Shown here in pieces: positions 16,400-17,034 of a DNA stretch of 50,572 nucleotides. This DNA comes from Escherichia phage XJA18-XJ-2024, in the sequence record PV584117.1. One strand, given 5' to 3'. Under the pieces are notes generated by a model that saw only the letters and a list, made by a program, of their open reading frames with translations, ran no database searches and was not told the DNA's origin. The translations under genes and the position numbers were made by a program. Within the stretch, counting starts at the first letter, position 1, and each line of letters begins with the position of its first letter.

Positions 16400-16728
16400 T
16401 TAGTTATTCTGCTTAGCAATCATTTCAAGCGCTTTCGCTTCCATGATCCTAACGTCCTGCAATGCCAGTTCTTCATCCTCTATTTTATAGATTTTAAACA
16501 ACATAGGCAAAACATTATAATCAAGACCGTAAGCTCCAGCGCCTGAACTTCTCCACTGAGTGAGCATTGATGTAAAAACATTCCAAGCCTTCACCATTTC
16601 AGCGTCGCCAATTATCGTTTCAGGTTCCTCGTCTTCATAGTCGGAAAGACTTAAACCAACCGATCGCAATTGTTCCTCTGTTGGCGGCTTCTGATATAAC
16701 AGATAGACCGCCTTTTTTAGTTTTTTGC
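16400..16728 (-). CDS. tail assembly chaperone GT, -1 frame extension segment
   Basis: -1 frame is open from the slippery site through track ORF 16400-16669; the track start is TTG with a marginal RBS, consistent with expression by frameshifting. Confidence 0.5.
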
Positions 16729-17034
16729 GCGGTGTCCGGCGAGAGCCTTGATGTAAGTCGCTGTCAGGTTGTACGCTGCTGAAGGATAATACTGAACCAG
16801 TTTTCGCGCATTTTCTTCGTTAAATTCTTCTTCAAGGTTCCATCCTGACGCGATCTTGGTAATGAACTCGCTGTCGTTCATTTCTCCCTGGTTGGCATAC
16901 ATATCCTGAACTTCTTTACTGGAAAGGTGGCGTACAGTGAAAATGATAGTTGCATCTTCACCGTTAGGCATGGTGAAGGTGACTGGAAGTTTGAAGTCTG
17001 GAAGTTGACCAAGAACGAAATTAAATTTAGCCAT
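16717..17034 (-). CDS. tail assembly chaperone (lambda G-like)
   Basis: 105 aa upstream of tape measure; conserved RBS ACCAATCAGGAG; ends with slippery heptamer. Confidence 0.6.
   Translation of the reverse strand: MAKFNFVLGQLPDFKLPVTFTMPNGEDATIIFTVRHLSSKEVQDMYANQGEMNDSEFITKIASGWNLEEEFNEENARKLVQYYPSAAYNLTATYIKALAGHRAKN
16720..16728 (-). other. putative -1 programmed ribosomal frameshift site (A_AAA_AAC)
   Basis: G frame ends GCA AAA AAC TAA; a -1 shift continues into the open frame of the downstream chaperone ORF. Confidence 0.5.

Follow-up and report, generated by a model that had tools for sequence, protein, structure and literature searches.

Tail assembly chaperones of the G/GT type, a pair of proteins produced through a programmed frameshift, were reportedly defined by Xu, Hendrix and Duda in 2004. 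The gpG/gpGT pair of phage lambda is said to have been described by Levin in 1993 and by Xu, Hendrix and Duda in 2004, 2013, and 2014. The lambda tape measure protein is coated by gpG and by the G portion of gpGT, whereas the T portion attaches to the major tail protein and starts polymerisation of the tube; both proteins are absent from the virion (PMC5009743). The gpG:gpGT ratio is about 30:1 and the frameshift is widely conserved (PMC5009743), with a frameshift efficiency of about 4% in lambda (PMC3296357).

In T1-like phages, the G/GT frameshift is already known and annotated. Two-piece joined coding sequences (CDSs) at the same site are found for tfmS of phage TLS (deposited in 2003) and gp16 of phage Stevie, the exact 211-aa fusion of phage T1 is available in GenBank under the name "tape measure chaperone" (AAP50000.2), and similar fusion entries exist for LL5, Sazh, and U136B. 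The T1-like frameshift is also mentioned in genome announcements (PMC4319613; PMC6763657, the latter for Skenny). Our literature searches found no experimental proof (mass spectrometry, immunoblot, or reporter) for T1-like phages, and the TLS record labels its frameshift annotation as "non-experimental evidence". The frameshift mentioned in the LAPAZ paper on Drexlerviridae is a mutation of the host and has no bearing on this site.

Here we describe the corresponding locus of Escherichia phage XJA18-XJ-2024 (PV584117.1), for which the whole stretch of 50,572 nucleotides was analyzed (referred to as the window). At the DNA level, the window shares 99% identity with Escherichia phage EF3-1, 97-98% with many Tunavirus genomes (T1-like, Drexlerviridae), and 98% with T1 itself, and the phage is a Tunavirus. 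The chaperone cassette and its flanking tail genes are all located on the minus strand, and the genes in transcription order are those for a tail completion protein, the tail terminator, the major tail protein, G, the T frame, the tape measure protein, and a minor tail protein. Directly upstream of the cassette is the major tail (tube) protein gene (17816..17148; 222 aa; PF08813 Phage_tail_3, E = 5.9e-70; phrog_584, major tail protein), and directly downstream is the tape measure protein gene (16360..13487; 957 aa; PF06791 TMP_2, E = 1.4e-74; PF09718, E = 7e-25; phrog_24).

Two overlapping ORFs on the same strand lie between these two genes. The first is a G-like tail assembly (tape measure) chaperone ORF in the zero frame (17034..16717; 105 aa). 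It starts with an ATG at 17034 that has an AGGAG ribosome binding site (RBS) 8 nt upstream, and it matches PF08748 Phage_TAC_4 (E = 5.5e-37; 127.2 bits, cutoff 21.1) with residues 1-105 aligned to profile positions 1-124 of 124. The second, the T segment, is read in the -1 frame after the slip (16720..16400; 106 codons and a stop) and matches PF08809 DUF1799 (E = 2.9e-12; 47.1 bits, cutoff 26) with residues 27-104 of the -1 frame translation. On the 213-aa profile of phrog_17368, G covers positions 1-107 and T covers positions 107-212; this profile spans G and T end to end, so fused versions are already present in that family. No other Pfam family was found even at E values up to 10, no NCBIfam model matched G, T, or GT, and the sequence search for relatives with solved structures returned only chance matches to proteasome proteins (E of about 0.09).

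The 3′ end of G reads ...CGC GCA AAA AAC TAA. As reported in the preliminary description of this DNA, the last four codons contain the slippery heptamer A_AAA_AAC (16726..16720), which is in the X_XXY_YYZ phase and spans the final two sense codons of G. The zero-frame stop TAA (16719..16717), a candidate stimulator, follows at a distance of 0 nt. No other in-phase slippery heptamer occurs inside the overlap between the two ORFs. The -1 frame is open from 16819 to a stop at 16402..16400 and continues for 106 codons beyond the slip, in agreement with the earlier statement that it is open through the downstream ORF, and the span of 16400-17034 given there runs exactly from the start of G to the stop of T.

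In the proposed mechanism, most ribosomes would translate G (105 aa) and terminate at the TAA, and a minority would move back by one nucleotide on the last two sense codons of G. The slipped ribosomes would then read 106 further codons in the -1 frame to produce the GT fusion of 211 aa. A dual-tRNA slip corresponds to join(17034..16720, 16720..16400); following the GenBank convention, the fusion is written join(17034..16723, 16723..16400). The fusion has 98.5% identity to its T1 counterpart, and a tblastn search with it found 1,136 phage records, nearly all of which matched as two pieces in two frames. We consider it very likely that a T1-like siphophage uses this locus to make its pair of tail assembly (tape measure) chaperones via a -1 frameshift. 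The suggestion of the preliminary description, namely, a conserved G/GT frameshift upstream of the tape measure gene, is supported with the same high confidence by gene order, the Pfam matches, 57 of 73 junctions, coding constraint, and the curated fusions.

The 15,218 codons of the window ORFs contain 50 in-phase X_XXY_YYZ heptamers (about one per 300 codons), so the heptamer alone is weak evidence. The one at 16726..16720 is the only in-phase heptamer of the window that is located in a real gene and followed by a -1 ORF of at least 100 codons. Another in-phase heptamer, A_AAA_AAG at 43066, is found 6 nt before the stop of a minus-strand ORF (43455..43051; 134 aa). At that site, the -1 frame reaches a stop after only 18 codons, and this heptamer is probably incidental.

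The comparison with relatives provides the decisive evidence. Conservation of the slip site was assessed with 80 loci from IMG/VR, which represent 73 distinct junctions. In 57 of these 73, A_AAA_AAC is placed directly against the stop (TAA in 55 and TGA in two); every one of these 57 keeps the X_XXY_YYZ phase, and the spacing to the stop is always 0 nt. Among 17 diverse loci, A_AAA_AAC with TAA is retained in Tunavirinae, Tempevirinae, Braunvirinae, and Kyungwonvirus, and also in Dhillonvirus JL1, which does not belong to Drexlerviridae and has 38% identity. At about 30% identity, Pseudomonas phage YMC11/02/R656 and Ralstonia phage YO075_1 have another canonical heptamer, G_GGA_AAC, with TGA at the same position.

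Five IMG/VR junctions are aberrant (L022, L037, L053, L076, and L093). Four of these (L022, L053, L076, and L093; approximately positions 1200-1215) have a slippery run of A5 instead of A6 (GTAAAAACTAA), which places T in the +1 frame; in L022, T and G share a frame. Several other frame disruptions are present in L037, L076, and L093 (Salmonella phage 36). Alternative recoding was considered for these five junctions and rejected, since A5 runs and multiple frame disruptions point to sequence errors, and they are likely homopolymer or assembly errors.

Two sister genera lack an X_XXY_YYZ heptamer. In Webervirus, G ends with GCA AAA GTT TAA (KP36, locus L014, and VLCpiD7c, locus L007; approximately positions 913-927), and in Rogunavirus with GCA AAG GTC TAA (AHP42, locus L012; approximately positions 901-915). 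The loci L087-L091 and L096-L101 also belong to this heptamer-less group. Despite the missing heptamer, both genera have a conserved -1 T frame that stays intact over about 105 codons, and only a single-tRNA slip of tRNA-Lys on A_AAA or A_AAG is possible there. The announcement of the Webervirus Skenny nevertheless states a G/GT-like frameshift (PMC6763657).

These genera bear on how many tRNAs move at the site. A tandem slip after accommodation of the Asn-tRNA would give the junction ...HRAKN-LKKAVY..., and a slip of the P-site tRNA-Lys only would give ...HRAKK-LKKAVY.... We infer the occurrence and the efficiency of slippage, as well as the number of tRNAs taking part in it, either one (P-site Lys) or two (Lys and Asn). 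Under a single-tRNA shift, a sub-variant of the best explanation, peptidyl-tRNA-Lys would move from AAA to the overlapping AAA when the A site is empty or slow. The Lys codon kept by Webervirus and Rogunavirus after loss of the heptamer fits such a shift, single-tRNA -1 shifting on A_AAG is documented in Escherichia coli (PMC5009743), and the GenBank fusions carry a K-K junction, although by convention only. On the other side, the A-site AAC seems to matter, as in tandem slippage, and if two tRNAs slipped in tandem, the stop would not have entered the A site at that point. Taken together, we regard the single-tRNA shift as a realistic minority possibility, somewhat on the unlikely side.

With regard to stimulators, the adjacent stop is the one invariant neighbor of the heptamer (57/57). 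Slow-to-decode A-site codons and nearby stops promote frameshifting (PMC5009743), and for this reason we infer that the stop acts as a pause element, i.e., as a slow-to-decode A-site codon. Ribosomes of E. coli shift far less readily on A_AAA_AAC than on A_AAA_AAG (PMC5009743). This weak shiftiness fits the low GT:G ratio expected from lambda; it also counts against frameshifting at this site, as does the lack of a conserved RNA structure or SD-like stimulator. A Shine-Dalgarno-like (SD-like) stimulator upstream of the slip site is neither visible in the window (GCCGGACACCGCGC) nor conserved in the alignment of relatives.

Downstream, a hairpin (GGCGGU...GCCGCC; 16712..16683; approximately -15.5 kcal/mol) is predicted 7 nt past A_AAA_AAC and may be a stimulator, with the comparative results below giving it no support. 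No RNAalifold consensus was obtained for it across 15 lineages, and covariation by pair counting was not above that of shuffles (141/500). The stem is kept in Tunavirus and Tempevirinae and broken in five to six lineages, including ESP2949-1, 12210I, and AHP42, and its arms coincide with the conserved codons for R-A-V and K-P-P. Given the missing consensus, the missing covariation, and the broken stems, we rejected this hairpin as a demonstrated conserved stimulator and retain it as a possible one.

A second heptamer, A_AAA_AAG (16718..16712), begins 1 nt past the first and is in phase in the -1 frame. This motif is the most shift-prone in E. coli. Within the comparison, it is present in XJA18-XJ-2024 and EF3-1 only, and it arises from a Lys codon (AAG) that replaces the Arg codon (AGG or CGG) of T1 and most relatives. 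T1 and LHE71 have AGG for AAG and hence do not have the second heptamer. The predicted hairpin begins at the last base of the second heptamer, which leaves no spacer between them. A second -1 slip at this site would lead to termination after 25 codons. If it takes place, part of the GT ribosomes would be diverted to the third frame, with a G-extended product of about 133 aa and a lower yield of GT.

A tentative reading of the whole chaperone family builds on three observations: the stop touches the heptamer in every junction that has one (57 of 57), no downstream structure is conserved, and Webervirus and Rogunavirus have only A_AAA_G or A_AAG one codon before the stop. In this reading, the conserved signal is a slip of peptidyl-tRNA-Lys paused at termination, not a structure-aided tandem heptamer, and in XJA18-XJ-2024 and EF3-1 the second heptamer could additionally divert some of the GT ribosomes. 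We consider this combined proposal speculative and improbable as it stands.

Alternatively, T may be an independent gene that is expressed from a start codon of its own, with the heptamer at the end of G being coincidental. The first start-type codon of the -1 frame, and the sole possible own start of T in XJA18-XJ-2024, is a TTG (16669..16667) at codon 18 after the slip, from which an 89-aa protein could be translated via a GAGG located 5 nt upstream. The preliminary description had placed the start of T at a TTG with a marginal RBS; the TTG is as described, and the word "marginal" does not hold, as GAGG at this distance is a better SD-like sequence than that. The 89-aa ORF has been annotated by gene callers in several genomes, such as EF3-1 and LHE71, and databases hold many "DUF1799" entries of 89 aa. 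However, neither TTG nor GAGG is conserved, and T1, despite its 98% identity, has TTA and GAAGAG instead. In four of ten lineages (T1, atuna, aalborv, and PHB17), the first 40 codons past the slip lack ATG, GTG, and TTG alike, yet conservation of the peptide KKLKRAVYLxYQKPPT... begins right at the slip site. Furthermore, the annotated "starts" of T vary by record (55, 63, 65, 87, 89, and 98-104 aa), a pattern typical of an ORF that has no real start, and T is not called at all in atuna, SLUR29, aalborv, VLCpiD7c, and ESP2949-1.

The substitution pattern also argues against an independent T. For the 40 codons after the slip, the differences summed over all pairs of ten phages are 386, 298, and 960 at -1-frame codon positions 1, 2, and 3, respectively, so the substitutions in the conserved peptide are biased toward third positions. 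Between T1 and the window, 14 nt differ in these 40 codons (11 at third positions), with one of 40 amino acids changed, and the other two frames contain stops. Thus, T lacks a conserved initiation site, and its coding sequence is constrained from the slip on. Frameshift expression predicts just such a segment, translated without a start and lying immediately past a conserved slippery site. Independent initiation is hard to reconcile with it, and the joint occurrence of heptamer and stop in all 57 heptamer-bearing junctions also speaks against an independent T. Based on these observations, we judge independent expression of T very unlikely. Some free 89-aa T could still be made from the TTG in XJA18-XJ-2024, and it would not be the conserved product.

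Transcriptional slippage, in which RNA polymerase would stutter on the A6 run(s) and one extra A would put T in frame with G, is extremely improbable: two A6 runs are present (AAAAAAC TAAAAAAG) and several database sequences have A5 versus A6, such that the run is error-prone at least for sequencing, but bacterial polymerases generally need about nine or more A or T in a row for productive slippage. Moreover, Webervirus (A4) and Rogunavirus (A3) have much shorter runs and keep the G/T frame arrangement, and the G_GGA_AAC of the Pseudomonas and Ralstonia phages has no homopolymer. All 57 heptamers adhere strictly to the X_XXY_YYZ phase, which is the signature of a ribosome and not of a polymerase. 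A review of transcriptional slippage is available (PMC5009743).

A strong terminator-like hairpin with a T tract is present on each side of the G-T cassette. The first (GGGGGC..GCCCCC with a T-rich tail; 17136..17119) separates the major tail gene from G, and the equivalent site of T1 is annotated as a rho-independent terminator. The second, with a T7 tract (16401..16382), overlaps the stop of T and precedes the tape measure gene; it is annotated as a rho-independent terminator in the records of T1, AHP42, and KP36. Overall, five terminator-like sites occur in 1 kb, compared with 0.7 expected. The bracketing terminators suggest a stepwise transcriptional attenuation from the tube protein to the chaperones and then to the tape measure protein.

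As G has no sequence similarity to lambda gpG, a function for the T1-like G/GT pair is proposed from lambda on the basis of synteny and the naming of the Pfam families. By this analogy, the shared G part would bind the tape measure protein and the T part would recruit the major tail protein. A fixed and high G:GT ratio, set by the efficiency of frameshifting, would be needed for tail assembly, and neither G nor GT would end up in the virion. In terms of biology, this locus adds one more example to the near-universal G/GT strategy, by which phages set a fixed ratio between two tail chaperones, and it raises no new question. The mechanistic points of mild interest are the slip site placed against the stop, the lack of a conserved RNA stimulator, and the genera that have no heptamer.

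The significance is mainly for annotation, as the correct call for this locus is a 105-aa chaperone and a 211-aa frameshift fusion. In most T1-like genomes, including the closest relatives of the window, G and a truncated or absent T are given as separate ORFs. The RefSeq record of T1 has T as a 55-aa stub, despite the 211-aa fusion in GenBank. In PHROG, the families phrog_569, phrog_680, and phrog_17368 mislabel both chaperone ORFs as "tail length tape measure protein", and these labels have been passed on to many RefSeq and Pharokka-style records, so that a typical locus shows three "tape measure" genes in a row. There are also database records with unexpected hosts. "Streptococcus phage MBBL140" (OR786094.1; host S. 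agalactiae) matches the G-T region of an enterobacterial Tlsvirus at 99.2% identity, and about 19 "Campylobacter phage A1xx" records (MG0656xx series) are about 89% identical. The host labels of MBBL140 and the A1xx records look doubtful, and the sequences may come from contaminating coliphages.

Compared with known systems, the closest is phage T1 (ST40/ST39), in which the orthologues of G and T have 97-98% protein identity, the same lengths (105 aa for G and 211 aa for the fusion), the same A_AAA_AAC with TAA, and the same flanking terminators. T1 differs in having Arg at the third residue past the slip (LKRAVY), where the Lys of the window (LKKAVY) is the source of the second heptamer, and in having TTA and GAAGAG where the window has TTG and GAGG. 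TfmA/TfmS of TLS and gp15/gp16 of Stevie are equivalent chaperone pairs for which the fusion CDS has been deposited.

Similar slip sites are also known from unrelated biology. The frameshift of the IS1 insA-insB′ transposase has the same A6C motif, A_AAA_AAC. Both IS1 (transposase) and E. coli dnaX (polymerase subunit; A_AAA_AAG) share with the G/T locus a -1 slip, an A-rich heptamer, and the single E. coli tRNA-Lys. Strong SD-like and hairpin stimulators are present in dnaX, whereas the search for conserved counterparts at the G/T locus found none. The use of frameshifting by the IS1 family is confirmed in a review (PMC5009743).

The lambda gpG/gpGT pair has the same position between the major tail and tape measure genes, and likewise has an X_XXY_YYZ heptamer close to the 3′ end of the upstream ORF, at which a -1 shift yields a minor product extended at the C-terminus. 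Several differences are observed. The lambda heptamer is G_GGA_AAG and is located 15 nt before the stop of G, whereas the A_AAA_AAC of XJA18-XJ-2024 touches the stop. The lambda T (144 codons) overlaps the start of H, whereas a terminator-like hairpin parts T from the tape measure gene in XJA18-XJ-2024. The lambda proteins belong to Pfam families other than Phage_TAC_4 and DUF1799, and the lambda frameshift is experimentally proven, whereas the T1-like family is known from sequence and annotation. A BLASTP comparison of G with lambda G found no detectable similarity (E = 2.6). Homology is not indicated by these sequences, and the G/T pairs of XJA18-XJ-2024 and lambda are analogous by position and mechanism.
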